Part shown: positions 5,369-45,300 of the stretch, piece by piece
Position numbering within the stretch: position 1 is the stretch's first letter
How the letters are laid out: each line of letters starts with the position of its first letter
DNA from: Lytechinus pictus
Lineage: Eukaryota
Length of the DNA stretch: 64,000 nucleotides
Assembly: GCF_037042905.1 (NCBI RefSeq)
Contig: NC_087245.1
Span: 14,200,001-14,264,000 of the forward strand
Direction of reading: 5' to 3'
Notes under the pieces: model-generated
The model's database searches: none
What the model was told of the DNA's origin: nothing
Seen by the model: the letters and a program-made list of their open reading frames with translations, nothing else
Position numbers and translations under genes: made by a program

Positions 5369-5468
5369 ATGTCTAAGGACGATAGCAGTTTACCCATAGG
5401 GGGGAGTGCAGGAGGTGGTAGGCGAGATCGTATGAGGAGATCTTTCCGTCGGTTTATGGGCAAAAAAG
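5369..5468 (+). CDS. trio: candidate alternative first coding exon A: MSKDDSSLPIGGSAGGGRRDRMRRSFRRFMGKK (phase 1)
   Basis: acaATG, 100 nt, donor AAG|gtgaaa, in frame with exon 30060. GC-richer and more protein-like than its flanks. Confidence 0.6.
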
Positions 5469-5704
5469 GTGAAAATAATGATCTTATATTGTTTTTTTTT
5501 TAAATTGGCAGATGATGAGAAGATGTTTGTTCCAGTGTTTTGTGAGATAATGTTTTCTGTAGATTCTAGACAGGGATTCTCCAAAGTTCTAATTTTATTG
5601 CTCTTTGGACCTGTTTATGGATTTGTCAACTATTGATTGGACTTTTCACAATTACCCCATTGTATAATGATAATCCAAATTATCCAATAATCATCCATCT
5701 TACA

Positions 5705-5935
5705 TTGTTCGAAATGGAAATCCTATGAAAATTCATTTTGCCCAATTGATCCTGGGCCCAGCAGCTGCTGAGCAGCTCTGGATCAACATTGCTCTATCCG
5801 TCTATCATTGAATGCTAAACAGGGTCTTAGCAACTCCCATCTTTTAACGTCTTTTAGCCTGACAAGGTCGGGACTTGAATTCCTGACCTCCCGCTTGTCT
5901 GGTGGACACTCTACCAAAGGAGTCAACACACCGGT
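5705..5935 (-). mobile_element. degenerate tRNA-derived SINE
   Basis: Minus strand starts ACCGGTGTGTTGACTCCTTTGGTAGAGTGTCC and has a B-box-like AATTCAAGTCC. Confidence 0.65.
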
Positions 5936-8724
5936 ACAAAAATGAAGGTTTAACGTTTTAAATAAAAAATCTCACTTGATATATCACAAAACCAGCTGTT
6001 ACATATCCCAAATTCATTTAGAGAATATTTTGTGTTTACTTTTGTTGCTACTAACATTTGCCATTCTGTTCTTATCTGTCATTATCATTTTCTTATCAGA
6101 CTTCACACAATATTTTTATTAAATTATTTTATTTATATGTTATTTAATAAATTTGATTTGTTGATATAAAATTTAGCAGATTTCATTCTAAATTTTGGAA
6201 GAACATTTAAATTCAAGTAAGGTTTTTCTAGTCATTCATTTACTGATTTATGTCCAATATCCAGGACTTTTTGTAATTTGTAATTCAATTCCATTAAGAT
6301 GATTAACAATCTGAAATCTTACAATGGATCAAGTTTAATAATAATATGATGAAGAGAGTCAGGTTCTTGTATGTAATCCTACATAGTTGTCATTCTATAA
6401 GACAGTAGATTAAAGATATAATAATTACTTTGTGAATTATATATACCTGTAAGGATTTAGAATATCAAGAGGATGTGACTTTGAATTGAATGTGAGACGA
6501 TGTTTTGTTTTAGAGCTTCCTTTAACAATTTTTAGGCAGTTACATGAACTTGGTATGTGAACTCATAGATGCCCTGGGTTTAATATGGCTCTGAAAACGG
6601 TCAACTCTTCTCAGTTTCAAAGGTAGTATGTGCTTAGAATTAAAATGAAAGTAGTTTCAAACACTGATGACCATCACTGATTGACTAAACAGTGATTTCA
6701 TGAGAAATCTGTAAATTCAAGGTTAATTGTTACCTCGTAGATCTAGATCTGGTACAGTTACAGTAACTGAACTTTTGTGAAATTATGAAATGTATGCGGA
6801 AAAACAAATAACAATCATACTGAAGATCACCAATACAAATGAGCACATTTTGGACAGTGTATTATTATTGCTTGGAAAAAGACCTGACATCAGCTGGAAT
6901 TTCTTTTTTGGGGGGGCTTATTTATCAGCAATTACACAATATCTTCAAGAATCCTTTGGCACATATTTTTGTTCATACATACGGTCATACCTGTGGACAC
7001 TTGGATGGTAATTTGATTTGATTCTGTATGAACTAATTTTGAAATTGCTAAAACAACTGGCATTTATATTTTGATTGTTTATCATTTCCATCCTTGTTTG
7101 TTTTTAAACTAGGCTACGTCCAGTAGTTGTAGGTCAGTATATGATTATAACTAAACTAGATTCCAAATGATAATAAAGGACTATATGATCCATTGAATAG
7201 ATAATAATATGAACCGATGCATCAAAACAGGCATGACAGGGTACTTGAATTTGAATGCATATTATGAAGAAGGAGAATAGAAAGGAATGCTCCCTTGGGC
7301 TGTGGACTGATAATACTCAAATGCACCAGTTATGGTGATTGATACGAATGACAGATGTACTGACTTCTGTCATGTTCATGTCCATTGGGGAAGCATTTCG
7401 TTTGGGCCTTTGTAATTCTGAATGTTTTTCGTACAATAAGACATACCTATTTTCATTGTTGCTTGTTTCCCCTCATGATATTTTAAAGGCAGAAATAATT
7501 AACACACTCTGCAAACACCCTTCATGAGCTGTTCACAATGTGAATTTCTAGTATTTGGTAAAATAAAAAATACAATTCCACTATAAGTTACTGAGCTAAT
7601 CAAAGATGAAATATAGTTATGATTTTTAGTTTAAATTGTGGAGGAAACTGTTTCCAACAGGTTTTGGAAGTTTGTTTAGTATGCATCAAAGAACTTGTCC
7701 TTTTTGCATTCATATTCATTTAACTTTGAAATCATTGAAATCATATTTGCTTTGGCACCATTATGCTTAATGAGTATTCAATAATATAACAATCAGTGAC
7801 TGAATGGAATTTGACACGCTTCTATTATGGAAAATGCATTGAGACGGTGATGAATATTTGTTTTAAAAAGACCAATTCTACAGAATGTAGATGCTGCCTG
7901 TACCAGAGTGAAGATTGGGAAATGGGGGCATCAGAAAAGTAGGATCATATTATCGAAACACTCGGTGAACAGAGTGGTTTTTAAACTGGAGGCATACATT
8001 TACGAGTATTCATGATGTAGAAGAAGTCATGACAATATTTTATATCAGAACTGTGCAACTAATATAGATCTCCTTCATATAAGACTTGTTATAAGACTTG
8101 TTCACAGAACAGGAAACATATATTGCATTTTCATTTTTTCTGCCCATCTGTCAATGTCTTTTATCTTGTTAGATATCATCAGTTATGACATGGCAGTTCT
8201 TGTCAACTTCCTTTTGTTATTCATTTCTGGATATGGTTTTAAACACATCACTGTAACTACCAAACAAAGGAAGATGATACCCCCCCCCCCATAATATGTA
8301 GTTAGAATTGAGGAAAAGATCATTTTATGGAAATGGTAACTAAAATAATTTACAGCTGAAAATAGATAGATATTTGTTTATTATACAGTAGTTAATACAT
8401 GTCCAGTGTTAGCACCTACGAAGTACTCATACAGAGCATATTTATAGGTAAGTTAATAACTAAAATAGGTAACACCATAGGCAAGTAAAAAAAAAGTAAG
8501 TTAATGAATTATTAAATTTCATACAAAAGTATAAGTTAGGATTTGTAAGTCGTCTCAATGAAAGTCCAAACAGTGTGGCTGTTAGGAATCCTGCTTAGCC
8601 CCCCCCCCCCCATCCTATTCAGTCCTTCTATGTCTTCATAGACAATACATAGTGGTACAGATAAAGTCAATAAGAAATCAGGCAAGCTAGTGGACTAGAA
8701 CTTCTTTAAATTATCCTAAGTTAA

Positions 8725-8903
8725 TGTGTGTTTGTGTGTGTATTTGAGTTTTATCAGACGTGTATCAATCAGATATGATTATTTACGTCTGGGACCGACC
8801 TTTTACGTCACCATCCGAAAGACGTGACCAGGGCTCGAACCTCTGCATCAATTTGTAACTTCCCCACAGCTTGGATTACAGGCGCACGCCACAACGCCCA
8901 GTT
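8725..8903 (-). mobile_element. SINE with 7SL/Alu-domain-like head, B box, 3' stem-loop and (CA)n tail
   Basis: Minus strand: AACTGGGCGTTGTGGCGTGCGCCTGTAATCCAAGCTG...GGTTCGAGCCC...CGTCTTTCGGATGGTGACGTAAAAGGTCGGTCC CAGACGT...ACGTCTG ATAAAACTCAAATACACACAC. Confidence 0.75.
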
Positions 8904-11737
8904 AAATGAACCTTGTCTTATATTAAATTAGAATAAACACAAGAACTATCCAGATAATAATGAAAAGATTGAACAAGGTCCAGTAAAATGTTCATAGGGA
9001 CATTTCTTAAAACTAGTATTAAACTGAGGATAACTTCAATGTAAGGGATTCCATAGTTCATTTTGAATAAGCTGTAATTACCATCAGTTACAAGAATTAT
9101 GTAGCTAATAATTAAACTAGTGGGTGTGATGTTATTTGATGATAATAAAGTATACACATGGCTAACATGAGCAGTAAGTCTTTGAAATGTTTGAGTAATT
9201 GGGTAAGTGAATGATAAATTCTAACTTGATTATTATATTCAGACACATATGATAAATTCACTCAATATTTACAACTCGATCCAATCAAAAATTAGAAAAA
9301 CATTTTTGTAATCATTAAAATGCATTCTACTTGCAGGGAATTCATTGAAGTAATGAATAATATCATTGGTCAATGAATATCACTGTGCATAGAGAAGTGT
9401 AATTAAGGTGACAATTTTCATTACCAACCAGCTGTGTTTTTCACCTACTACCAATCAATGGTAACCTTCACCATCAACATGCCCTGCTTTGTAAGTCAAT
9501 ATTCTTCAGTGATACCTTACCATTGTATAATCACTGGGAACCTTTGTATAGCATTCAAGTCATCTGGGGACTGTTCAACATGATACATAGTTTAAGTATG
9601 CTTAAGCACCAATGTGCACTTAAATAAGATAATTAGGTATTTAACATATTTAATCAATAAGACAATGAGTTAAGTGTGACTTAAGTCACACTTAACAGCT
9701 TCCATGTCCTACCAAAGCATATTCTCTCAAACTTAATATTTTTCCCATGTAATGGCATTTTTATGAAAAAAATTGTCCTTTATTTTAGAACAGCCATTGT
9801 AAAAACAAGCGGCATGTTGTGATTTTATTCATCAGAATAGTGTACTGCTTTATTTCTGTACTACCAAAGTTAACACTTTGAAGTTAAGAAATGCCTAATT
9901 CCTTGTTATTGGATACTGCTAGGTATTGAGATTGAGGCAGTTCATACTGAGTTACCCATCCCTATACAGTCACTCCACACCTCTCCTTAATTAGGCCCAT
10001 CCTGCTTTAAATGGTCATTTGACTGTCTGCCAGTCCATCTGTCTGGACAAACGTAAACAATAGATGCTTTCATACCCATCAGATCACACAAAAATAAATG
10101 CCTTAAAAAACTCATTAATTCTGTGCATTGACATCCATGTGAACCAGATAGAATTCTAAACAGTAATATGCATATACTTTCTGCCTCATATTAACAGTTC
10201 TTGTCATTTGCTTCCACACTATAAAAATCCCTGTGATTTGGGAGAAAACCCTGCAGTTTTCTTTCAGACTTACTATTAATTGGTTTATATTATCTTTTTT
10301 ATATCATATATTCTTTGCTTTCACAGTGACAATTGACAAAATACATGTACCTGGTTATTTTTTGTTTTGTGCATAACTCTAGAAAAAATCAAACATATTT
10401 TTTATTAGGTTGGTATGAAAGCACCCATTGCCCAACATTTCATTTCTATTGCTCTATGGTTTTGTTTATGAAACTTTTTGGTTACATGCCAAAAAAAGTT
10501 TGCAAATGTAATTGAGAATGGTTTCCATCAAGTAATGTATAGGGTTGTCTGAAATAGAATTATAATTTGTAATAGAAAAGATTCAAAGTATTTATGGTAT
10601 CCATGATTTTTCGTTTGGGAATCAAATTTCAATTTTTGCATTTCTGATTTTAACTTTAAATTGCACATTCACAAATTGATACTTGATATCAGATATATAT
10701 AACAAATATGTCTAGTTGGTGGTATTGCATTTGATCATGCATGATTTTTTTCTTAAGATAGAGGGTCATGGTCATGGCCAAGAAAGGTTTTTGGTTTAGA
10801 ATACTGTGACAATTAGGATTAGGTTATGGTCAGGCTTGAGTTAGATGTGATGTTGAGGTTTACATTTTGCCAAATGACGTGCATATTTTCCATAGGAAAA
10901 TTGTTCTGGAGCAAATGCCATGGATTGCTTCAAGTGTAACTCTTCCCAATTTGGACACAACTATCATCATATTCATACATAGGATGAGTAATGGGAATGC
11001 CAATTTTTAAGAAAAATATCTGCAAGGGCTTACTGCAAGAAATCAGACTGATTTGGTAATCTGGGCAAGAAACTGAAGAAAAGAACTGGAGGATGGTCAG
11101 TTGCTGATTAAAAGGTTGGATGATAATGTAATTATGATATTAGACCTTGCTGTATTCTAAGTATTTGACTTGACCCCATCCTGGGGGTGTCTAGTACCTT
11201 CAGACTTGGTCGATGACTGATTGCATTAAGGCTGGCTATCAGCCACTAGATCATTGAACCTTGCTTCTTTAACATTTTAAGATGATGTGTAAATTCCTTT
11301 GCGTGAATCCACCATAAGTTGAAAGACATGGCTCACCCGCCCCGCTTGTATCCTACCAACTAGTTAACTTTTATGCAAATAATAGTAAATGAGAGCATCT
11401 AAACTTAGGTAATTTATGTGTATCCACTGTAATTTTGAACCTGACATGTGTTCAACTGCCTTTAAAAATCCAGGCCTTTGCGTTTGACATACCCTCAGAC
11501 ATGCCAAGACTCCTGCATTACACATGAGATGCTCAGTTCAGGGGCTCTTGCTCATCTCTTTCTCATGCATGTATGATAATAATAGTGATATCATATTGAG
11601 CGCACACACCGTCCAGAGAAGCTCATGGTGCTAGCCCAGCAACAAACAGGATACAAATCTTTTATACATATAAACAGCTACAAAATATGGATATAAATAG
11701 AATCAACAAAGAAATCGTAAATCACTACAAGTACAGT

Positions 11738-14271: not shown

Positions 14272-15058
14272 GGCTGCGTTTATGCGACCTCAAGCCAGAA
14301 TCATGATTTGAATCATGATTTGAATCATGATTCAAAACACAAACATGAATCACAATATCACAGAATCAGCGTTTAGACGACCATCATTCCAATGCTGTTT
14401 CTCCTTAGATTCGGGCCAATCCAGTGCGCATCACTAGTGCGCAGTTTGACAGAGGAAGTTTTTCGCACGTGTTTTGGCTCTCGAAATACCCCCATTTTGT
14501 TTACTTCTATCATATAGGGTCCATATGCTTATATTCATCTTGTTAGTTTATCCAAAATGGTGTTCGGAAGTTAATTTCAGCGTAGATCCAATTTGATATT
14601 GGTATACTCAACAACAACTGAGATCATTTTCTGTCCAGTTAATTCATTTACTAGAACTTGAAGACATGACCAAAAAAAATGAAAAGTAGTGGATGATGCA
14701 ATGACCAACACAGAACTTGAACATGACAAGAAATGCATGCGTAGTACATGATCATGTACATACAATGAGCAAAAAGAGCGCCTTGAGCTTGGTAAGAGTC
14801 AAACCAAAAGTAGCCCGACACAACAGTGAGGTCATATAATCATGATTCAAATCACGATATCGTTTATTCGAACATTTTCGTACGTGATTCTGCAGAAACG
14901 TCTTTCCAAACGCCCCTTTTTTCGTGTTTCATGTTTGTGATTCTAATCATGATTATATTCAATTTCGACTAAACGCAATCGTGATTCTGCAGAATCATGA
15001 TTTGAATCATGATTCAGATCATGATTCTAGGGTAAAAAAGTGGCGGATAAACGCACCC
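14272..15058. mobile_element. PIF/Harbinger-like MITE with subterminal GAATCATGATT(C/T) palindrome arrays
   Basis: Termini GGCTGCGTTTAT and ATAAACGCACCC followed by TAA. GAATCATGATT occurs 3 times at the left end and 2-3 times at the right end. Confidence 0.75.
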
Positions 15059-25819: not shown

Positions 25820-26335
25820 ATTGTACAACGCCTACTTAGCTTGTTGTACGCGAGCAAAAGGCTGAATGTCTAACATTCATACTATTGCACACATACCGTC
25901 CAAATTGTACCATCCATAATGTACCGTTGCACGGTCAGGAACAAGATGACGTCACTATAAAAATTAGGATTGAATGCATTGTGCTTAGTATTATTAATGC
26001 ATTGGGCTTAATGGTTAAATGCAAATTGCTGCTGCAGATCAGATGGCCGTAAGAGTGATTTTTTTTTTTCGCTTTCAGTAATTCTTATTTTCATAGATTA
26101 TGAAAAATTAAGGGAAAATTGATTATTGTTCATATTTTCGCTAACTTGCAAGGCATTGTACAAGACATATAATAAATTATATTCTTATTTGTGCAATGGC
26201 GTGACATTTCGCATTCGGTGAAAGAAAGAGACACTCTATTCAACTCGGCTGAGCCTTGTTGAATAGAGCATCTTTCTTTCACCTTATGCGAAGTCTTGCA
26301 CCATCGCACTCATGCCTATTCTCTATTTGTATATA
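25820..26335 (+). mobile_element. interspersed repeat with ~120-bp 3' palindrome, copy 1
   Basis: Shares its start ATTGTACAAC.CCTACTTAGCTTGTTGTA and its end CACCATCGCACTCATGCCTATTC with 57158-57629. Hairpin GGTGAAAGAAAGA..CTCTATTCAAC / GTTGAATAGAG..TCTTTCTTTCACC. Confidence 0.8.
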
Positions 26336-27233: not shown

Positions 27234-27539
27234 GTATTATTTTCCGGTTCTATACACTGGTACTTATTCACTGGTACTATTCACTGGTATTTTCACTGGT
27301 CAAAGATATTCTCTGGTAATGATCATATTATATAAAATTGCACCAAGGCACTAACTCTTGTAATGGGTACATCATACAAAATATATATATTATTCATTCA
27401 CATGTATATCTGTTGTCTTGATAAGATATGTATTTCTGGTTCAGCACTTACAATCATTAGATAGATATGACATTCTATATCATGATTTTTGTAGGTCATG
27501 CTGCCGCTGTTTCTTTTAAAGCAAATGGCTACTGTCATA

Positions 27540-27680
27540 CTTCTGCTCCTAATTCTACTTCAAATTCCACTTCTACATCTACTTCTCCTTCTACTTTTAC
27601 TTAAACATCTATTTCTACTTCTACTCCTTCTTCTACTTCTACATCTCCTATTTCTCCTTCTACTTCTACTCCTCCTACTT

Positions 27681-27712
<32 letters not shown>

Positions 27713-27777
27713 GCTGCTACTACTTCTACTACTACTACTTCTAGTACTACTACTACTACTACTACTACTACTATTTA

Positions 27778-27847
<70 letters not shown>

Positions 27848-27911
27848 ACTGCTACTACTACTACTACTACTACCTCTACTACTACCTCTACTTCCACATC
27901 TACTACCACGC

Positions 27912-27978
<67 letters not shown>

Positions 27979-28300
27979 CTCTACTTCCACATCTACTACT
28001 ACGCCTACTTCGACTTCTATTACTACATCTACTTAATGTCCATCAACTGAAACTTGTGCATCTACCTCTACCTCTCTACCTACTCCTGCTTCTACTTCTG
28101 CTCCTACTTCTACTTCTACTTGTACTCCTTCGTCTACTCCTACTCCTGCTTCTACTTCTCCACCTACTTCTACTCCTACTCCTATTTCTACTTCTACATC
28201 TTCTACTTCTAGATGTAGTATTTTTCTACATGTCTATCTCTACTTCTGCATGTCTACTTCTACTTATACACACCTACATCTACATCAACATGTCTACTTC
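27540..28300. repeat. compound (CTA)n/(CTG)n microsatellite within a degenerate CTACTT low-complexity tract
   Basis: Long CTA runs around a CTG run at ~27792-27850; this produces the poly-Leu ORF 27498..28355. Confidence 0.95.
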
Positions 28301-30059
28301 TTATACATGTTTGTCTCTTTACAAGTCTACATCTCCTCTGTGTATGTCTACATGAAGTCTACTTCTGCTTCTGTCATTGTCTGCTTGTACTACTAATTGT
28401 GTGTCTATGTCTATGTTAACATATATTTTTACTTCCAATTTTGTCTATATCTTCTTTTCATCTTCTTCTTTTACCTTTCATTCTATAGCCCAAATTCTTA
28501 GTGTTATATTGGGTGCGTTCATTTTAGGTGAATTGAAACATGGATGAAGATTCAAATTGATGTTTTAGCTTAGTCAAGGGGCTTGTACAATACAGCATTG
28601 GGGTATACAAGATTGTATCATTAATCTCCTTGATTTGATAAGCACTGTAAACAACCACAATGCCCTGATAGATATTTCCATTTGGATTTAACCAGCATAT
28701 GCAGATCTACAGCAAATGTTAGATTAAATACTCTTACATATTCATCAGTTACTCTTTATTATCATATATATATTCAAGTGCAAGATCCTGTAGACTTAAT
28801 GATAATGCATTGAGAAACGTGTGGAGAGAAATAGAGATTATTATCATGTTTCCACAGCTTCATGACACAAAGCTTTGCAATCAATTTTGCAAATAGACAA
28901 TGGTCAATCAACCCCCTTGTTGCGCACACACAATATTCAATACCAAATATTGAGCAATTGGAATAACTTCTTGAAATTTGTAATTGATTGTAAATCTTTG
29001 TGATATATATGGGGTCCTTATGCAAAATGTTACAAGAACAAACATGTTTACACAACATGGTGAAAACATATATTTTTATAGCGAAATATACTTCCTAACT
29101 GGACTCATTGGTGCAAGGTACAACTTTATTGTGCATATAATTATACAATGTCCAACATATCACTATAACGAAACATGTCAGGTTTTTAGGGATTTATGCA
29201 TAATTATGTATTTACTGTGTAATGCGAAGCCAACATAGTTGTACTGAAATGCAGAGCATATTTTGGTTGCTCTTGTATAAATATAGTGATTGCGTGAAGT
29301 TTAATTATTACATAGATGTACCTGTTTATTTTTCTTCAAATTCCATCCTTTTGTGAAATTTCCATTGTAACTGTGTGTATATCATACATGTATATGTGTG
29401 TGTGTGTTTTTTTTCCTGTTTTTTCCTTCAAATATTGCACAAGCCCATGTATCTGTATGTCTCTGGATCCCATGTTTATCATTGCTGATCACTGATATGA
29501 TCAGAGTAATCTGTTGACTTACATACTCTGTCAGTCGCCAATATTTACAATGGCCCATGCTGGTTTTGTCGCAAAACCCACCCAAAATAATGAAATGCCT
29601 CATTGTATGCAGGGTATCAGCATGAGACTTTCATCGATGTGCTTTAGTTGTTTTGAGGTATGCTGCAAATTGTTTTCCTCGAAGCCATTATGTTGACTGT
29701 CCTTTACAGCAAGGAAAAACCAATTTTAAATCACTAAGGCAGATCCAGGATGTTGTGAAAGATTGGACACTCAAATATCTGAATATTTTCTTTCAAGTAA
29801 TAAAAATAGCAAGGGTTTCTACCTTGACAAAGTTGCTGTTTAAAGGGTTATGAGTTTAAAAAGGGGGCACTTCTCATAGAAAAAAATTAGGGCCACAGAT
29901 AAGTAGTTATCCCTTCAAAATTTGTCACAATGGGTGGGGGTGTAGGCATGTGCCCCTTGCCTGGCCTTCCACCTCACAAACAGCATTCATGATGACTGTT
30001 TAGAGAAACACTGGTATATTCATGTATCTTGTATTGTTTTCTTTCTTTTTCATTGATAG

Positions 30060-30141: not shown

Positions 30142-33100
30142 GTAAGTCCATTTTGCTTCAAATCTGTTTTTAAAGTGTTTCATTCATCTGTTATTGAAAA
30201 GAAATTGCTCTACTTGGATGTACATCCTATCATGTTATGGCATTTGAAAAAAACTTTAAAAAGTCATATTCACGTGCATAATCTTTGCATTGTGTTTGTT
30301 GAATGTCAGGAAAAAAAATTCTGTGTCATGGCATTTATTATTATACTGACTACTGAACCCAAGCCTCCAAATTCCAGGAAGAATAACTGTTGCTTTTTTA
30401 TTGCCAATATAATCCCTGTGGAGGGGACAAATATTTCAAAAAAAGAATAACTGAAAGTTTGTTTGAATATTGCTACTGATAAGACAAAATATTGTAGCTC
30501 ATAAAGCAGGGTGAAAAAAGCAATGCTGTCATAACACTATCAAAATTAATATTTTTACGTTGAACAGCGGTGACTACATTTTGTAGATAGGGAGTTGGGA
30601 CTTTTGACAGGATTATTGATAGATTATCTAGTGATTGAACATAAAAGCTGATTTCCTCCATCTCTCGGAGAAATTTTAAGCAAGCAGCCAGCTATTAACT
30701 ACATGTAGCTAGTGGATAGTTTAATATGCTTGTTATAGGCATGCAGATAATTATCAAGTGATCTTCGAGGTGAGCATGTACTCTTTGCCAGCTTGTAATC
30801 ACTTATTAAGTTCACCACCAGCTAGTCACTTGCTAGTTAATACTGGTTTGCACCACGCTTAAATTTCCATAGGTGATAATTTAGGATATAAGGTCTTGTC
30901 ATCTAAGCAGTGATACATGAATGTCATGTTTACATGTAGCTCTTGCGGTTCAAAATGATTGACACTCCTCTATAGCTTGCTATGTTAAACACATTTGTAA
31001 AGATCTGAGTAACTCTATGAAGAGCTTTACAATGCCCCCTTGCTACCCTCACCCCACCCCAATACAGCAAAGTTTAAAGTAGAGTCCTCATCATCAAGAG
31101 GAATTTCTAGTGACATTGATTATAAATTGTTTGCCATCAAGAGCCGCCCAATGGTTTATGTATACCTGGAAGATAGATGGAGTATGTCATTCTTCCCGAA
31201 CTGATGACATGTAGCTATGCCGTTGGTTAGACTCACTCTCAGGTTATTGTATCAATTTTTACAAAACCTTTATTGCATCTTCCGTATTGCTGGTTATTAT
31301 CAATATATGTGGGATCATAGCCTATTCATAGGGTTGTTTCACAAAGAATTAATTGTGATTTCTCGTCATTCTTGAATTCCTTATAGCACAGAATACATGC
31401 TGCTTTCAGCAACTGTGTCCACTTGTTAGATTTCTACATACATGTAGTCAGTGTTAATCCAGCACTGTGGATTGGGTTGGGTATAGAGCTTATAAAGACC
31501 AGGCGGGTGTGTCATAAAACAGTTTGTAAGTTAAGAGCGACTTTAAGAACAACTGGTGAACCTTTCTTATGCTCTAAATAATCACCAATGAACATTTAAT
31601 GGTCAATATCATTTACCATAAGAAATGATCACCAGTCGTTCTTAAAGTCGCTCTTAACTTACAAACAGCTTTATGGCCCCCTGGTCCCACTGCACTTACG
31701 GATGCAAAGCGGATGTAAAATGTACAAAAATCTTGCCATCTATTGGAAAATGCTTTGCATCCGTTGCGTAATCATTGCATACGTGTTACATACGTTTTAT
31801 CCATCGAGCATCCGTCCACTGGGATTTTATCCGTGAGAAGAGTTTTGAGTTGCACAAAACTTTTAGAACGGATGAACTTTCGCTGTATATGATATAAATC
31901 CGCAACATAAACGAGCAACAAACATTCCATATCAGTTATCATCCGTTAAATGTACGCTGTCTGCATCTTCTGGGCATCATTGCAACTCATATCCACTTCA
32001 GCTGAACAACGGAAAGAGGGAGGAAAGATAAGATACATGGAACGTCTATACATCATAAGTAGTGCGGAAATTGAAAGGATGTAAGCGTATGCATCTTGTA
32101 TATAAAGTATTCAAACCCTGGTAACCCCTTTGGAGCTGCCATCCACTTCCATCTGCTTTCATCCGCTAGGCTTCCGATGAACATTCATTTAAACATCCCT
32201 GCTAAATACTACCAACATCTGTTATTTTCTGTTATGTTTCCGCAAATTTTATCGCTAATTTTGTCCATTTCTGGAGCGGATGAAAACGGATGGAGCAACC
32301 CCCGAAATTTTGTTTGTCCGCTGTGTCCTTTATGAATACGATTTGCATCCATCAGCCAGTGGGACCAGGCCTTTACTAAAAAGCTAGCCATTGTGATTCA
32401 TTTAGTCTATTCCAACTATGGAAGCCCAGAGATATCATCATCTAGAATTTATTATTCTCTCCAAAGTTTTCTCTGAGCCTGCAGCTTTCTGGAACCAAGC
32501 CACCAAGGGATAGATGCGTCCAGATATTTTCATATACACCATTTTTCACACATTATGCGTTAGACTCCCGCATTAGGGACTCTTACTCGTCCCCTCGAAT
32601 CTCATTCTCACGCATGTATCACAGCCTATCCCCATTATACACAACGTCTGTGATCTCATGCTGAATCACGATAAGTCTCACCCATAGCTGGTCTTCGATG
32701 AACTTGGCATCGCTGTATTTTATTATTTCATGGAGGTAATGTTGGTGTATTCTTTCCCACCTGCCCAATTAGGAAAATACCCTTAGATGTAATAGAATGT
32801 ATTATGCCTCCCCCCCCCCCAAAAAAAAAAATGCATGATGATAAATTTTTGCACATTCACACCTGTCTGAACGAGATAAGGTTCTTGTAGTTAGGAACCT
32901 GCAACAGCACTTGCATTCTCACAGCAAATGATGCATTCTCCTTGTCTCACATCAAAAGGATTCTATGATTTCATTTCACACAGCAAATATTCCGGTGATC
33001 AAGAAAATATATTGTTAACGTTCCTGTTTGTTTGTGTGCCTTCTAACCTATGGGTATTTTTTCCATTAAAAAATATTCTTTATATTTTCCAAGACCAGCC

Positions 33101-36100
33101 CAAATACCTCTTTCCTAAAATTTGTTATAACTATAACAGTTGAAAGCTACTGAAATTGTTTAATTTTATGGGCTGGTACTAAAATTGGCAAAGAAATTGT
33201 GCATTTGTTATGATAAAAAGTCTTTTTGAAACGGGGGGCCCAGGTGTGAAAGCACCTGGTGAGAGGGACGTCACCTCCTATCTGTTATCAGGGCGCTAAC
33301 ACTACATAGCACTCAGCAGAAGCTGAAAGTCTTGAGTGCTGAGGAATGCTGTCCGATAAGGTACCCTGATGACACACTGACCTGTCTTGAACGATGACAA
33401 GTCACTTGTCGTTATTATTCCGCTGATGGATGTCTCCTTAACACCAGTGAGGTGTTTCGCAGAGAAGACATAGTTATAACTTAAAATCACAAAATCACTC
33501 TTGGAGATTCACTGTTCACTGTTGTATGTGATATGTAATGCATCAACACATCGGTGAGGTCACACTTAAAAGATATGACTACCTTGTATTCATCAATAAT
33601 ATTTCCATTAATTATAATAATAATAATATAATGTCATTTGGAGGTTGAGCATGACTTAAGCAGACTCCAGTGGGCCGTTTCATAAAGCTGTTCGTAAGTT
33701 AGAGTGACTTTAAGAAGGACTGGTGAACCTTTCTTACGTGCTTAACCATTGCCAATGAATATACCATTTCCGACAAGAAAGGATCACCAGTCGTTCTTAA
33801 AGTCACTCTTAACTTACAAACAGCTTTATGAAACATCCACAAGGGGGGTGTTTCACAAAGATATAAGTATGACTTAGAGTCGCAGTTAAATGCCTAGTTG
33901 TGTGTGTTATAAAAGGCATAACTGCATTGGTCAGATCCTGTTAAGAGGACACGCACTCCTGTTTATTAATCGATAAGATTGCGCGTAGCATTTCATATAC
34001 GCGTTGGCATTTAAGTGCAGTTCTAAATCATACTTTAAGGACAAGTCCACCCCAACAAAAGTTGATTTGAATAAAAAGAGAAAAATCAAACAAGCAAAAC
34101 ACTGAAAATTTCATATAAATCGGATGTAAAATAAGAAAGTTATGACATTTTGACATGCAAATGAGGAGACTGATTACATCATCCACTTACTATTTCTTTT
34201 GTATTTTATTGTATGAAATAGGGAATATTCTGTTTTTCTCCTCATTGTCAAGTGAAACAACGATTAATTCCTCCCTGAACATGTGGAATGAGCATTGTCT
34301 AATGCTATATAATTCAGTCAAGTTGGTCCTTATTGTCAAATTTAAAAAAAAATGAAATATTGTATAATTTGAACAATAAAAAACAAAGGAAATAGTGAGT
34401 GAGGACATCATCGACTGTCTCATCTGAGTTGTGCAAATCACTGTTTTGTGAAAAATGAGCAAAACTTTAAAATGTCATATCTTTCTTATTTTACATCCGA
34501 TTTTGATGAAATTTTCAGTGTTTTGCTAGTTTGATTTTTCTCTATTTATTCAAATCAAATTTTTTCTGGGATGAACTTGACCTTTAATTAATTAACAGGT
34601 TGTACCGTTTTCAGCTTTTGGGGGGGAAAATCCATACAGAAATATTTGAAAATATGAAAGTGGGCCATTTAATAGACAAGTGTAGTCTCGTGAGATTTTT
34701 TTTAAAGGCAATATCGCATGTAGCATTCCTTGAAAATGAAAGAAAAATATTATAATTAAGAAACGGATTAGTCACCTGAATCGATTATCATTAATTTAAA
34801 CTAAAATACAGAGCTGGGATTTATATTAATCTCAAATATTGGTTTAAGGAAGGATAACTGAATCAAGTTCCCCCAATATCAGTAAATGACTCTCCTATAG
34901 ACTGAGTTATAGCTTTCACTTCCAGTTTTAAAAATAATCATCCCATATATCTTCTTTTTAGGAGACAAGAGCTTATAGATGGCATTATCTTTTAGTTTCT
35001 ACTGTCATGTATTTGTTGTAAACATGTTATATCAATTGATGCCTATTAATAATCTGTTCAATAGTCAAATGAATAGACTCTTTGACTTTCCTGCCTTTTC
35101 TTTACAAGAAAACTGATGGTAGGATGTGGTTAAAATCTGTTGTGGGTTATGACATACAGTGGAGCTGCTCAGCTTATGGTAGGCCTACACATCATGCAAG
35201 CTGTCATTTTATTCAGTCGGATTGCAAGGAATACTTTTGTTTTGTCAGACCTCAGGGATTTTTAAGATTATAGCTTCATGAGTCTTACTGCTCGAAAATG
35301 TTGTAAGTGTTGTTGAATGGTATTATTCTTATTTTTAGCAAAATATAACTTTTACATATTCCTTCAGCCAAAAGGATTCTGTGATGTAATGTTTTGAGAT
35401 TGTCTGTTGGTTTAAAAATGTGAATGCAATATCTCACTAACTGACAAACTTTTCAGGAAACACTGTAGAAGGTCCAGTGTTATTGGTCTGTATGGGTGCG
35501 GGAGACTAATATGCTTTTCACACTGCACTTTTTTCCCTTAACCCCAGGAAATTGGTGGGGCTAAGGGGGGGTCTTAGCCCCACCAATTTCCCGGGGTTAA
35601 GCTTAGCCCACTTCGTTTTCACATTACGTTTTAGCAAAGTGGGCTAGCACGGTAAATAGTACGGTACTATCTGGCCCTGCAAAAAAGCAGGGTTAGCCGG
35701 CTTATTGTGGTGCTAGCACCACAATTGCGGTGCTAAGAGATGCAGTGTGAAACGAAACAGGGCTAAGCATTAGCCAATCACAGAAGTCGAAATTGCACGT
35801 TAATCGCGCTTTGTATGTTAAAATCGTCAATATTTATGAGCTGTGTGATTGCCCGGGGTTAAGGCATTAACCCCGGCTAAGCAAATAGTACGGGGTTAAG
35901 AAAGACAGTGTGAATAAAAAAAAAGATAGTATGGGGTTAAGGATAGTCCGGGGTTAAGGATAGTATGGGGTTAAGGAAATGCAGTGTGAAAAGCATATAA
36001 GAGCTAAATGGTTAACAAGGTCAATGTCCACATATCATCGTGTCAGTACAAGAACGCCCTTCAAACCATACTTTCATGCATCGTATGTGTGCAAAAATGC

Positions 36101-39100
36101 CCTTAGCAGCATGCATAAGGGCGTTTCTGCACCAGTGGGCAATGCAAAAAATTTTTCCTAATGGCATTCTTGCACTAACACAATATATTTGTTTGTAAAT
36201 TTGATTCATCTGAATTAAATGAACATTCTAGTGAACTAGTTCTTTGTTATCTTTGTTATCACTATCTTTTGAATGGGTCGCAATGTATTTCATTGCAGAT
36301 TGCTGTGGTGGGTTATTATCCCCTTTCATTTTGCATGATTTTGTTTGTACAAAAATTTAGTTTATATACCAATGATGTGATTATTTACAAGTATTTGCTT
36401 GCTTTATTTTCCCGTTCCCAGGAAGTGGCTTACGAGTCCGATCCGAAAACCCAGTGGGAAGGGTGCAGAAAGAATAGAGACACCTAACAGAACAGCAAAT
36501 AGTGGCTCAGGAAGGGGTAGGAGACAAGATCAAAAGGGACAGGTAAATTCAACATCAATTTCAAATATTAATTAGATAATTAGTTAATTATTTAATTATT
36601 TGGTGAGTGCTGGACATGATTACAGAGTTTTGTTTTGTTTTCTTTAAAGATCCAGTTCACTCCAATATGAAATTGACTTCAATAAATAGAAGAAAAAAAA
36701 TTAATTAAGTTTAACATTCTAAAAGTTTGTCAAATTCAAATGAAAACGCGGAAATTGTGGCAACTCTGTAAAACAGTGATATGCATGACATGAGTATGCA
36801 ATGAGAGAGCTGATGATGTCACACACAAAATCACCATTCTATCAGATGATATTTTGAATATTATGTTTTGGAACCTGTTTTTTTTAAACAACTCTCCATT
36901 GATTAATGACAAGTGATTTTTTCATGCTTATACTGTGCTTGATTAATTGTAATATTACCATAGCAAAGTGCATCTGACTTATGATTAAGAACATGATAAT
37001 TTAAGTTGGGGAGTATATCGAAGCAGCAGAAATAGTGAAGGTAGATTTCTGGACCAACTCAGCTAGGACTTTTAAAAATTGAAATTATTACTTTCTTGTT
37101 AAATACTGTTCAAAAGAGACTGTTCGCCCCCTTTATTAACCTGTTGAGGACTGAATGATTGTGCCTTAACACATGTTTTCCATAGACTCCAGCTGATTAT
37201 ATGCGGGCTCATTCTTCAACAGGTTAACAGTGTCTTGTAGAGAACAGTTGCAATCCAGTTGCTTGTGATTTGATTTGGTTTTGGACATGGTTACATTGAC
37301 TGTATTTAGTGTGCTGGTACCACTAAGGGATTCTGTCAGATAATGTTAAACATCACATAGTTCCTGATACATACAAAGAAAAACACACTTATCAATGAAA
37401 ATCAGGCAAGCAATTGGCAGTTCAAGCATATCATTGTTTTTTTTAATAGGCATAAATGGCTTGTCCTTGCAATTTACTTGTACGATTTTGAATAGATGTA
37501 ATTATTCATATCCCTAGAATGCTGATTTTGTGTGGTTTCCATGAGTCAGGTCTGCATGTAACAATGCAGTCATAGTTATAATTATCAAGAAAAATAGCAA
37601 AAAGGAGTATTTTAGAACATGCAGGCTATACACATATGGTTCCAATATAATATTATCATTTACATTAATTTTGTACACCAGGACCCCATCACCAGAATAA
37701 ATTCAATCTTTGCAAATTTGATCAGTAAGTTTGATTTGTGACTAATTATCATTTGAACAGAATTTACTTGAAATGATGATCTTGATAAATTATTGCCATT
37801 CATACCTTTGTGTTGTAGGGCATGTGATTAAGGTTTTATTGAAGGAACAAAATTCAGCTTGACAGACAAGGAAGAAAATATACAATAATATGAAAGAAAA
37901 AACAGAAAGTTATCGGAATTACAGAGGCATTGTTTGAGTGGGAAATTAGCTGTCAAGGAAACACATTCATGAGACGATTAGGACAAGATGCAGAAGAGGC
38001 GTTAACCAATGCAGGAAAAAGGTGAAGAATTAATGAATAAAATACCTCAATGCTTTGTATTCAATGATGCATTACAAAGCAAGAAAACAAACATCCGAAA
38101 GAGTGAGTTATAGAGAATTGAAGTAATGGGAAAGATGTCAAAGAATGGGATAATAAAAAGAAAAGTTGAGAGAGGAAAGAAGAGGACCTTTTGCAAGGAC
38201 AGACAAAGAATAAAGTAAAAGGACTGAGAGTGATGCAAGCGAGCTAAAGGCGCCCATTGACGTCATGGCCAGATTTCTGTACGCAGTCGACGGGAGTACA
38301 TCAGCAATAAGCATTAAAGGGAGCCAATCACGCGAGAGGGAAAGAGCAAGCTCTCAACTCGTACCATCAAGGGCAATTCACCACCTGTTTCACTCGTATA
38401 TGATTGCAAATTCTTATTAATTTTACTCTTTCCAAAGTAAAAATGTACTTGAGTTCACCCGATAGATCCTCTCGGCTTGTAACAAGTTATGTGGGTAAAG
38501 GTGATGAGGAGATGGGGAATATTTCAAAGCTGATTTTGTTGTTGGTTGCAGATTGATTACAATGTGAAATTTGCTATTTTAGATTCATTATGTTGAAAGT
38601 CAAAGTACAATAGAGTGATTTTATGATTATCTATTTTTTTTTATTTTTGCATGAATCTTGTTTTCTTTTCATTAGTTCCTTTCCAGTATAATACATATTG
38701 ATTAATCTGAGCGGGAGGGATGGGGTCTGATGTTCTTTTAATAAAAATATAAAAAAACCTTCACACATACCTTTGAATTTAATCATAATGCATCTCCTAT
38801 CTTCTATCTATTATCCACATTCACATTGTACATTGCATATCACTCAAAACCTATCCCCCTGTTAAGAATTATGTCCTTCAATAAATATTGATTTCTTTTT
38901 AGCATGTTCTCTCTGTTTCGTATCCTTTGAAGAACATAATCTTGAATTTCATCCTTAGAAATCAGATAAAGTGCTCATGATCTGGGCGTAGTCTCACTCA
39001 TATCTGAAATTTTGAATACCTGTATTTTATTATTTTTTTAGATGAAGGTTCTTCTTATCTCTAATTTCTATCTGTTTGTAAGTTTTTTTGTTTTAAGTAA

Positions 39101-42100
39101 GTGTTCCTTTTATATTCCTTCTTTATTTCACTGTATGCCCCTATCATGCTCATGGTATTATCCCTTCTTTTTCCCCATCTCTCATCCCTCTTTTTCTTCT
39201 CTTTTTCTACTCTTTTTATCTTTCTCTTATCACTCATTATTTCACACTCCTTCACTGTTGCTCCATCTTTCTCCCCATTTCCTCTCTACTATTCCTCCCT
39301 TTCTCCTGTTTCTGCTCCCTCGATCCCTTGCTCCAACTTCCACACTTCTTTCACTCTCTCAGTCACTTCCTTCCCCCCGCCCCCATCTCTCCTGCACTCA
39401 TATTTATCTCTCCTTCTATCCCACTTTCTTTTCATCTTTCAATCTATACCAACCCACCCGGCTTCCCCTTCTCTATTCTCCCTTGTCTCTTCCTCTCTCA
39501 TCATCCTATCCTTCTCTTCATCTCCTCATCTGTTCTTTTCATCTCATATCATCCCTCTTCATCTCCTCAATCCATCTCTCACAATCATCCCTTCCATTAA
39601 ACCACCTCTCTCCCCTCTCTGTAATCCACCTATCCATCCTTTACCCTTTCTCTGTATCTTCATGTATCGCTCTCTCTCCTTCACTGCACCATTAATACCA
39701 TCCCAAGTAGAAGAAGCCTGCGAGCCATATTCACTTCAATTTGACATCATTCCATCTCACGTGATACCTTCTACACTTTACCACCAATGGTATTAGAGAC
39801 TGGGCAATGAGTCCAAATATAGTTGAGCTTAGTGACGTATTTAGTATTTTTTGACATTTCAACCAAAAAGCAATTGTCCTTGGGGTTTTTCATGGCTAAA
39901 TATATACCCAATGCAAAGTTCTAGGATACGCTAACTTAAAAGAACATATACATGAGCTAGATTTTGTCGAAAACAGTTTTTTCCTTTTTTGTTTTACCTG
40001 TGCCTTGCAGCAATTCACATCATCATTACTTGTCTTTGTGTTGACCTAGTTAGAGTGAACAGCCTGCATAGATGCTAAAGTGTCTTTTATTTTGCGTTAA
40101 AACAACTCCAAAATTGAATCCCCCCATATTCAACAGTAAATTAAGTAGGAAATATTTTGATGAATTAAATCTTCTTTTATGCATTATTGCAGGGTCTTTT
40201 CAGATGCTGATGTGTTCAGCATATCTAATACAAGTTATATAGGCCTATAAATGTAACGTTTGATTTTTTACTGCTCAGTTATTGTAACTGCCTATTACAT
40301 GTAAATGTTACAGTAGTTCTATAGACTGGCTTTATTTCTCTGTAAAGTGAATTGTTGTGTCAGTGCAAGAACGCCCATAGCAAAATATTTTTCGCGCACC
40401 CCATCAGTACAGAAATGGCCTTATACAATGCCCCTATGCGTGCTGCTAAAGGTGTTCTTGAACTGACATGCCAACACAAACATGGTAGTACAGTATATAC
40501 AATACACCTATGGCAAGTAACTTGTCGATCAGTAGAAAAGTCTTAAAGAAATAGAAGAGGAGGAGGAGGAAGTCAAAAAAGGAGAAGGAGGAGAAGAAGA
40601 AAAGAAGAAGAAGGAGAAGAAGAAGAAGAAGGAGGAGAAGAAGAAAAGAAGAAGAAGGAGAAGAAGAAGGAGAAGAAGAAGGAGAAGGAGGAGAAGAAGA
40701 AAAGAAGAAGAAGAAGAAGAAGGAGAAGAAGGAGGAGGAGAAGAAGAAGAAGGAGGAGAAAAAGAAGAAGAAGAATAAATAATAATAATATAGGATTTGT
40801 ATAGCGCACATATCCACCTTGCTAGGTGCTCAAGGCGCTCCTATATTACCCCGGCTAAGCTAGTCTACCGATTCTGGTGCGCACAGCTTTTTGAGGAATT
40901 ACTTCCTGCCGGTACCCATTTACCTCACCTGGGTCGAGTGCAGCACAGTGTGGATAAATTTCTTGCTGAAGGAAAACACGCCATGGCTAGGATTCGAACC
41001 CACGACCCTCTGTTTGAAAGGCGAGAGTCAGAACCACTAGACCACGACGCACCCACAGAAGAAGAAGAAGGAGGAGGAGGAGGAGAAGGGGATGAGTAGG
41101 AGGAATAAAAAGGTGAAAGAGAAGATATAGAACAAGAGTGAGAAAGTGGAAGTATGAATATAGCAAAGTCAAAATGAAGCATTAAGAAATTAAGGCTGGC
41201 AGTTATAGTTGTACTAAACCTTTGAATAGGATTGAGTCTTGTCACTGTAGCGACTGTACTCTGTACATTTTTGAGAAAATATGACATAACATGATTGGAA
41301 TAATTGGTGCTGGGGCCTGGAACAGGTATTTGATAGGTGTCAAAAGAAAAGAATACCATCCCGCGGTATACATTAGTGCATCTTTTCACCTTCCCCATGC
41401 CATTCAGATTGACGATACATGTTTTGTACTCATTGACAATATTATTAATTTTAAGGCTTAGAGCTGAAATGTCATAAAATGTCACGGTATGATAATCAGA
41501 AGGCAAACAAAATGATATGAAAGAAATGTAATAGGAGGAGCTAGAAAAGAGAATTTCTGCATTGAGAAGTTCCCTCTCCTGACATTCACATGTCTTGAGA
41601 ATAGGGAATGGTTTAACTAGTGACCTTTGAAGTATTCTTGTGAACTACTTCCTAGTAACAAGCCTTATGCGATGCCCACTGGTTTGGTATAAAGAGAATA
41701 TAGGCCTATATTTTAGGAGGGGATTATAAAGTTTTATTTTCATGAAGATGAAAGATAAACAAAAAAGGGGTGAAATAATGTGTGAAATGCTAATCATTTT
41801 TTACAATCTTAAATCTTGAATTTGATGCACCCAAAACGATATATCATCAGCTGCCCCAGGGGGAGGCAATTCCATTGATGAGTGGATATCATGCGTGACC
41901 AAAAAACATGTAAAAAAAATCTCTTTTTCAAGATACGCAACGCAATAAGGGTGTCAAAAACACCAAAATGATGAAGAAAAGGTATATATTTTCCTAGGGA
42001 AACTACATGTTTACAGTCCATTTCGAGAGGGCATAAAAAGACTTAAAGGATGTACCTTTTGCCCCAACACTACATGTTTAGGGTCCATATTTAGCGAGGT

Positions 42101-42370: not shown

Positions 42371-45300
42371 TATCAGCTGCCCAAGTAATGGTGACAGCGA
42401 GTGTGCATAAATTATTTAATCTGGACTTTAATGTGAGAAAACTACTAAAGCTATCACATCATGGTTAAATGTGAGCATCACATATTATCTGACAAAGTAC
42501 TTGATGTCTAGATCTTTAAAGGAGTGCATGAACGTTATGTGTTAAAGGATAAACATTTATATACTTAAGACAGAATAAGAAGTATACCATGTGCTGTATT
42601 CCTAGTGTATGATCAACAACACTTGAAGTTATAGTCGAAATGGAAGTCACTAAAATATCTTTTTAGAAAAGCAACTAACAATTGAGGTTTGGTGAACACT
42701 GTGCCTGAGACCTGTATTGCCTTGCAGGCAGAGCCTTTGTGGGTTGAGTAGCGGCACACATCACACAGAGAGCTATGAAACTATTATTCAGTAGCATTCA
42801 GAAGTACACTATTGAGATGGGAATTTTCTATTGTAAAATGTCTTGATAATATGGATGACCAGTTAGTCTGTGAAGCTTTGGTGGTTCCTGTCTGACCTAA
42901 AGGTTTTCGTTATTAATTACAACTGAAACTGGAAAGGTGATTTTAATTTTGATTCCTGAACAAAGTTATTAACCGCCTTTAAGACTGTGTGTGTTTGGGA
43001 GGTATTCCTGATTGTCTTTATCTTTCTGTTTTAAGTGATGATACTCTTTATACCTGGGAGAGAAAGGGACAAAAGGGGAGTGTTTTTGGAGAGCATTGAT
43101 ATTTATTTCATGCGAGGAGGTGTCTTTTTTACTTTACAGTTTTCAGCATGTCAATACGGTAAACAAGTAAATAAGAATGGACATGTGTCCCTTATGTCAT
43201 TATATTTCTGTTTGTCAGTCTGTATCTCTCTCCCTTTCTTAAATCTTTCCCTCTCTCTCTCTCTGTCATTCTTATCTTATATTTCTTCCACTATCCAACC
43301 ATTTTCTATTTAACATGAATAGTATAATAGCTGCCAAACATTGCTGCTAATGAGCCTGTAAATTCTTACAAAAATTGACATTAAGTAACATGTCTGATTC
43401 TCTGCATATATTGTAGGCCAGTTTTCACCAGCTAATCAAGTTGTACTTGTTTCATTTCAGGAGCCATTCATTGAAGAAGCTAGTCAAGAAGGAGTAGAAA
43501 GGGAAGAGCTTGCTGGAATCGATAACGTAGTTCATGAGGTGAGATATGACCGTGATCGTAATGTTAGGCAGCTTTAGATTTGCAATGCAACATTTTTTCA
43601 ACATTTTCTCTTTCAAGTATTTCTTCCCCCATTTGACATCGCATCTTCTTAGCATGTGACTTGGTTGCAAACACTCTTTAGATTTTTTGTGAAGATGGTG
43701 ATTTAAAGAAAGCGTGCCCAAAATGCAGGTCTGCGGGAGAGAGCCAGCGCGAAACCATTGTGTTACATTCGTGTATCCATGCATTTACATTGGAGGGAGC
43801 CAGTGTGTAACCACTTTGTTACATGTACGTAATACACACCCAGTGACATTACACAACCATACAGGATGCACAAATCAGTGGAAAGAGTCATAGATTGAGT
43901 TGGTAAAGAGGCTGAATCATGAATGCGATCCGCATATCAACACGATTTTACAAATATAAGTTGCGTTGCAAATCTAAAGGTCCCAGTAGATCACAATTCA
44001 TAATAAACATTGACAAAGGGAATGGCGCTACGGGGGGGGGGGGTGCAAATATTACTGGAACTGATAACGTATCATAAGGCGAAATACTGTCAGACCATGA
44101 TATTGTAGTATTGATGATCATGATTAAGTCACCTTTAGTCATTTCTTATAATTATGATATATGGAATATTATTTTTTAAAGACAAAAAAGGTACATTAAA
44201 TAATCAATGACAAATGACAATGGCTGACAGGTGCAGTTCTGCAGGGGTTGCACATTTTGCTGGGGCTGGTAATGTATTTCATGAGGCAGGATACTGTAGA
44301 ACAGTGATCATAGTATCAAGGGTCATCTTTACTACTTCTTGAATCATTCAACCAATAGGCAGCATGTTATATTAGGCCGACCTGAAACAGATAGGATGGA
44401 TCAATTTGTCAGCCATATTAAGAATTCACGACAATGTAAATAATAATAATAATAATAATAGCTGGATTTATAAAGCGCTTTTTGCCTGAGGATACAAAGC
44501 GCTGCTATTATTACCCCGGCTTTAGCTCGAGCTACCATCACCGGCGCTCAGTGCATGCAAGGAATTACTCCTGTCGGGTACCCATTCACCTCACCTGGGT
44601 CGAGTGCAGCACAGTGTGGATAAATGTGGATAAATCATTTCTGACCAGCAATAAATTGCCAAAATATAGGCCTTACTTAAAATGTTCTGATTTGGCATGT
44701 GCATGACATTTCCCGTATTTTTATAAACACAATAAAACCTGTATTAAAGTTTATTTAGCTCATAGATGTTCATGGGTGAAATATCCATCTGTTTCCTTGA
44801 CTTTTTAGTCTTACCATACGCTTTCAAACCCACCCAATCATAAAAATACCTGATAATTTTTGTTTTGCATTCACAACCGGTCTGAACCAGATAAAGTACC
44901 TGTAGTTAGGAGCCCACATCAAAACTCTTGCATCATGATATTGGATGTCATTTCTCAAGTCTGAAGTTCTTTTGAATTTGCTTTCACACCGAAAAGTCCC
45001 TGTGAAAATTTATTTTAAAATTTCAAATTTCAATCACCAACTTTCTGGTGTTTACTATTTGCACTATAATTAATTACTACTTTACCCCATATTGGCAGAT
45101 TACTTTGTGATTTTGGAAGTTCGTAGAATTTATCATCAGTAAATAAATACCAGGTATTATTTTGTGATTGGATGGGTACGACAGCAGTTACTTTGATCCT
45201 TACCCTGTATGTCCTGTGTAAGACTTCCTGTTAAAATCCAAAATAGTATTCATAGCATATTTTAATAGTTTCAAATTACAGAAGTGAAGGAAATAGGATG

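Follow-up and report, generated by a model that had tools for sequence, protein, structure and literature searches.

Does an invertebrate genome harbor a SINE whose head derives from 7SL RNA? In the sections of the papers cited here, to which all our literature statements refer, SINEs derived from 7SL are portrayed as exceedingly rare and confined to vertebrates (PMC13023118, PMC10886601). The question is raised by a short element on the minus strand of a 64-kb stretch of DNA, the whole of which is called the window below. An earlier note, made from the sequence alone, had read this element as a chimera of a 7SL-type head, a pol III B box and a segment resembling the Deu-type core, residing in an apparently invertebrate genome. 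Our analysis bears out this build, and protein alignment bears out the host. The explanation that we favor is that the locus holds one full-length copy of a chimeric SINE; taken as a whole, including the origin, transcription and mobilization of the element, we regard it as likely.

Layout and boundaries of the element

The element comprises 175 nt (8899-8725, minus strand) and is bounded by two copies of one 6-base word (8905-8900 and 8724-8719), which probably represent a 6-bp target-site duplication. The chance probability of such a repeat is 4.6e-4 for fixed positions, and 0.01-0.05 when the boundaries are given some freedom. Inspection of the sequence found every part listed in the earlier note at its place on the minus strand, including the repeated word at both ends. 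The span given there needs one correction: its parts are in place, but the bases aligned to positions 1-3 of the SRP model (8902-8900) are the last three of the 5' copy of the word. Because of this overlap with the duplication, we delimit the element as 8899-8725, with a 5' end that is uncertain by 3 bases.

From its 5' to its 3' end, the hallmarks of a SINE follow one another: an A box, a B box, a conserved core, a hairpin, a tail of simple repeats and the duplication. Judging from the sequence, the element carries putative A and B boxes (8898-8889 and 8841-8831) as well as an apparent target-site duplication (the 6-bp repeat) and a simple-repeat tail (CA). By eye, no TTTT run is present inside the element on its own strand, the first being located at 8528-8525. 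SINEBase defines SINEs as shorter than 1 kb and not tandemly repeated, and its definition includes at least 100 interspersed copies and at least 60% identity to a tRNA, 5S RNA or 7SL RNA over at least 60 nt (PMC3531059). The element is short enough and is absent from the 26 tandem repeats recorded in the window; its 7SL match, at 44-45 nt, falls short of 60 nt.

The 7SL-type head

The comparison with Metazoa_SRP that the earlier note had suggested was performed with Rfam. Positions 1-44 of the 299 in the model aligned to 8902-8858 with 31.2 bits, short of the 70 required for gathering, and with an E-value of 1.6e-6 for the 401 bases searched, or ~3e-4 when scaled to the 64-kb window. A scan of the whole window at the gathering level gave no hits. 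Within the boundaries set above, the head (8899-8858, minus strand) corresponds to model positions 4-44. An E-value scan of 8600-9000 returned four matches at E ≤ 10, of which Metazoa_SRP was the best and none was a tRNA family, and ARAGORN found no tRNA genes in the window. A match to mir-1268 (Rfam, E 0.0097) was rejected as an identity because it covers the same bases as the SRP match; mir-1268 is presumably Alu-derived. The earlier note had counted 29 matches in 32 positions, which holds for the two strings that it compared, the reference being its own version of the 7SL sequence; when the consensus printed by Rfam is used instead, these 32 nt have one inserted base and match 28 of the 31 consensus positions. 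The element thus has the 5' head homologous to 7SL RNA that characterizes SINE1, though at a score below gathering.

The head is compatible with the SRP fold. In the SRP alignment, all pairs of the closing stem (3/3) and of the second hairpin (3/3) are standard, as are six of the eight pairs of the first hairpin; of its other two, one is the family's own and one is U-U. As model positions 1-3 fall in the duplication, the closing stem may in part reflect chance or microhomology. The alignment contains the U-turn triad G4, U23 and G24 as well as both loop triplets, to which SRP9/14 binding and the pseudoknot are assigned in the case of BC200 (PMC12265939); at the level of sequence, the element shares this trait of published SINE1 families. 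The 7SL-type pol III A box (8898-8889, minus strand) lies within the head and, compared by eye with the boxes given in PMC7245038, is identical at 8 of 10 positions to the human 7SL A box and likewise to that of hagfish 7SL. The minimum-energy fold of the whole element, computed with a program that cannot model a pseudoknot or a bound protein, lacks the 7SL head fold, and its stability does not exceed that of shuffled sequences (z 0.49).

By eye, the tRNA-headed snail SINE Lsa_3 starts with nearly the same first 13 bases as the head. These ~13 bases therefore do not discriminate 7SL from tRNA, and the discriminating part is the U-turn segment with the second hairpin. Given the SRP match and the results of the two tRNA searches, a 7SL-type rather than a tRNA-type head is supported by the sequence. 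The note was correct as to the 5' Alu domain but overlooked the absence of the other parts of 7SL, as no SRP match beyond position 44 was detected at E ≤ 10 in 8600-9000. The idea that a helix within 8860-8820 stands in for the absent 3' domain of 7SL was rejected (z -0.23).

The body of the element

A linker without a match to the SRP model (8857-8842, minus strand) leads to the B box (8841-8831, minus strand), which lies 47 nt after the A box and is, by eye, of the tRNA type, with a 3-pair T-stem. A B-box consensus pattern matched twice in the window, compared to a chance mean of 0.46. The B box previously reported is thus present, but the pattern match is weak when taken alone, since 8 of 100 shuffles also reached two matches.

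The Deu-like core follows at 8828-8792 (minus strand). By eye, 29 of its 37 columns are identical to the Deu row of AmnSINE1_HS in the supplement of PMC7245038, and similar Deu rows occur in mollusc SINEs. A 21-base motif common to the core and the AmnSINE1_HS row, selected as a pattern after both sequences had been viewed, was found once in the window and in none of 100 shuffles. The Deu-type core of the earlier note is therefore retained only for its first part: the first ~37 nt match, but the remainder of the domain is absent by eye, and the central domain, which measures at least 70 nt in the DeuSINEs (Nin-DC SINEs) described, is represented by its first 37 columns only.

The 3' stem-loop and CA tail that had been described were both recovered. 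The former is a two-tier hairpin (8791-8755, minus strand) with an energy of -13 kcal/mol (z -4.13; none of 200 shuffles was as stable, the boundaries having been set after the fact), and is a candidate LINE-recognition element. The tail (8741-8725, minus strand) is a (CA)n-type microsatellite without poly(A). Neither the tail nor the junction of the B box with the Deu piece had a match in four supplement files of SINE papers.

Host and genomic setting

The host is a Lytechinus-like sea urchin, as established by protein alignment over the 64-kb window. In a search of 31 candidates, which gave four hits, a PH-domain exon (61629-61835) showed 97% identity to a kalirin-like protein of Lytechinus pictus; its identity to a Trio-like protein of Diadema antillarum was 88%. 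The L. pictus protein aligned to the window in 17 pieces (27155-63798), 12 of them at 96% identity or more, whereas the 14 aligned pieces of the Diadema protein were 56-93% identical, hence the assignment to a Lytechinus-like species. Contamination with a human Alu was rejected in view of the body, which is unlike Alu, the sea urchin gene in the window and the flanking duplication.

The SINE lies ~18 kb upstream of the first matched RhoGEF exon, on the opposite strand. The exons of this kalirin/Trio-like RhoGEF gene are spread across 27155-63798 on the plus strand, and intron 1 of the short kalirin-like isoform contains a long compound CTA/TACTTC microsatellite (27538-28301). Inspection by eye also revealed a short ATG-started frame at ~5432-5470 (plus strand), followed by a possible splice donor, within a GC-richer patch; the frame may represent one more alternative first exon of the gene.

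Copies and other repeats in the window

No second copy of the element was found by blastn in the 64-kb window. A body-only nhmmer search over the rest of the window gave a best E-value of 6.2 and no match to the tail, and the Rfam E-value scan of 9000-64000 returned two weak unrelated matches and no second head. A 15-base match at 38092-38106 lacks any SINE context and was rejected as a second copy. Patterns drawn from the body had no matches in any of six metagenome, viral and prokaryote scans, which contain little animal DNA and have no bearing on copy number. When the segment 8100-9500 was compared with sequencing runs, part of it was present in 20 of 24 entries and half or more in none of the 24, with no RNA among them; these shares are non-evidential. 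One copy is thus known, from a window of 64 kb, and we consider it very probable that it belongs to a SINE family.

Several other repeats occur in the window. One of them, at ~40770-41040 (minus strand), is SINE-like, with a tRNA head, a TAT tail and a B box located at 40990-41000; its body is unlike that of the 7SL-headed element, and a 5'-truncated relative (75% identity over 198 nt) is present at 44439-44625 (minus strand). At ~5720-5930 (minus strand), a degraded tRNA-like head is followed by a stretch that by eye resembles rows of the Meta domain, possibly an old MetaSINE. A tandem array with a period of ~224-235 bp (459 as a dimer) and 84-89% matches occupies 48237-50531, with related sequence at 47808-48349 and 50507-51052. 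Palindromic MITE-like repeats were found at 31505-31675, 33677-33838, 1525-1599, 35537-35601 and 25820-26333 with 57158-57628, two of them being dispersed pairs. Finally, a ~730-bp segment (14296-15028), possibly a non-autonomous DNA transposon, carries an array of 12-bp units at each end; the arrays match in direct as well as inverted orientation.

Proposed origin and mobilization

According to the explanation that we favor, the 5' Alu domain of 7SL (~nt 1-44) would have taken the place of the first half of the tRNA head on an older Deu-type SINE, probably through a template switch during reverse transcription. The A box contributed by the 7SL piece and the B box of the tRNA remnant would together direct transcription by pol III. 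In the transcript, the head would fold into an SRP9/14-binding module and probably carry the RNA to ribosomes as Alu does, while the 3' hairpin and CA tail would be recognized by the reverse transcriptase of a presumed partner LINE, which would use target-primed reverse transcription to insert copies and produce a short duplication. Head exchange has precedents in the 5S-headed Deu SINEs (PMC4758252) and in the hagfish SINE1, which arose by chimera formation (PMC7245038). Against the explanation stand the single copy in 64 kb and the 44-nt match, which is below both the gathering score and the 60-nt length used by SINEBase.

Nucleotides 1-46 of 7SL bind SRP9/14 like the 86-nt domain and support ~86% of Alu retrotransposition (PMC11760393). 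The 3' part of Alu is needed as the carrier of the B box, and SA46 RNA, in which the B box is missing, yields no further rounds (PMC11760393). The combination of a ~46-nt domain with a B box from elsewhere is therefore the best argument for Alu-like ribosome targeting in the sea urchin element. The 46-nt result transfers imperfectly, since it was obtained with L1 and poly(A) in HeLa cells and the element ends in a hairpin and a CA tail. Overall, the chances that the element binds and uses SRP9/14 appear to be about even.

The most serious competitor, which we consider possible though distinctly less probable than our explanation, also assumes a real 7SL-headed family. It holds that the head supplies only the pol III A box and a transcript-stabilizing 5' end, and that a stringent LINE reads the 3' hairpin, without SRP9/14 targeting. 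The element lacks poly(A) and ends in a strong 3' hairpin, as expected for a LINE that recognizes 3' structure; non-mammalian LINEs are thought to do so (PMC7245038), and the missing 7SL 3' helix points in the same direction. However, the head ends near the boundary of the 46-nt domain and has kept more than the A box, namely the helices, the U-turn triad and the two loop triplets, a retention that a young age would also explain.

It is unlikely, but conceivable, that Repbase or Dfam already has an entry for the family from Lytechinus or a relative, so that it is not new, as sea urchin SINEs are named mainly via Repbase entries. Searches of the mainly open-access literature turned up no 7SL SINE from an invertebrate.

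Less probable still is a one-off or low-copy chimeric retrocopy, in which a 7SL 5' fragment was joined once to a truncated tRNA/Deu SINE in the manner of U6/L1 chimeras: such chimeras have been described and the window contains a single copy, but its A and B boxes are compatible and normally spaced. A tRNA-headed Deu SINE of the ordinary kind that resembles 7SL by chance and through shared A-box sequence is highly improbable, for all that the start of Lsa_3, the tRNA-type B box with its T-stem and the tRNA head of the sea urchin Deu SINE SINE2-3_SP may suggest it, because the structure-aware SRP match and the negative tRNA searches speak against it and neither the U-turn segment nor the second hairpin has an equivalent in a tRNA.

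Significance

In its most far-reaching form, the favored explanation would place a natural minimal 46-nt Alu module in the first invertebrate family of 7SL-headed SINEs, combined with the B box of a tRNA SINE, a non-L1 LINE and an ending without poly(A); we put the chances of this full picture at slightly less than even. Retention of the whole Alu domain in all 7SL SINEs has been read as a requirement (PMC7245038). If the picture holds, echinoderms would have a family built on only the 5' domain, and 7SL SINEs of a different design would have originated independently for a fourth time. Such a family would be a natural test of whether 46 nt suffice, the 3' part mattering mainly for the B box (PMC11760393), and would show, in a group of laboratory model animals, whether targeting by SRP9/14 is of benefit beyond the L1/poly(A) system. 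Ribosome targeting through SRP9/14 would then be a portable module that can help any SINE, and the shared design with a 183-nt deletion would not be required.

Comparison with known SINEs

In the sections cited, the hosts listed for 7SL SINEs are Euarchontoglires, hagfish and the shrew mole alone, and every one of these SINEs has lost a central part of 7SL while both ends remain (PMC7245038, PMC10886601, PMC13023118). The rarity asserted in the earlier note is thus borne out in print, but its list lacked Urop of the shrew mole. The arrangement shared by Alu, B1, Tu, Urop and Ebu1-1, with 5' and 3' parts of the Alu domain around the deletion, was not found in the sea urchin element. Alu, B1, Tu and Urop resemble it in their 5' Alu domain with an A box and the SRP9/14 U-turn motif (PMC13023118); their central deletion, 3' part and poly(A) have no equivalent in it, and neither, presumably, has their dependence on L1.

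The hagfish SINE1-1_EBu (Eptatretus burgeri) is similar in that an independent 7SL head is fused to parts of an older tRNA SINE, with a microsatellite tail instead of poly(A); its partner is a non-L1 LINE, as is presumably that of the sea urchin element (PMC7245038). It contains 7SL nt 1-96 and a 3' part with its own 7SL-type B box, bipartite RTE sequences and duplications of ~17 bp (PMC7245038), whereas the sea urchin element has 7SL sequence of ~nt 1-44 only, its B box is of the tRNA type, part of the Deu domain is present and the duplication is 6 bp long. The minimal Alu domain SA46 consists of almost the same stretch of 7SL (nt 1-46), which is enough to bind SRP9/14 and to allow a single round of retrotransposition (PMC11760393); SA46 is engineered, with an external promoter and poly(A), while the sea urchin element is natural and has an internal B box from another source.

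With the DeuSINEs or Nin-DC SINEs (SINE2-3_SP, AmnSINE1, BivaMD-SINE1), the element shares the first ~37 nt of the Deu domain after the B box. The DeuSINEs described carry 70-330 nt of the domain and tRNA or 5S heads (PMC4824008, PMC5804259, PMC3747384; see also PMC5786205), and the sea urchin SINEs in this literature are tRNA-headed; SINE2-3_SP was compared on the basis of its description. On its sequence features, the element is only a partial DeuSINE and stands outside every published SINE1 lineage. With its 7SL head it is SINE1-like in name and probably in promoter, and it probably represents a previously undescribed form of SINE1 from a sea urchin.
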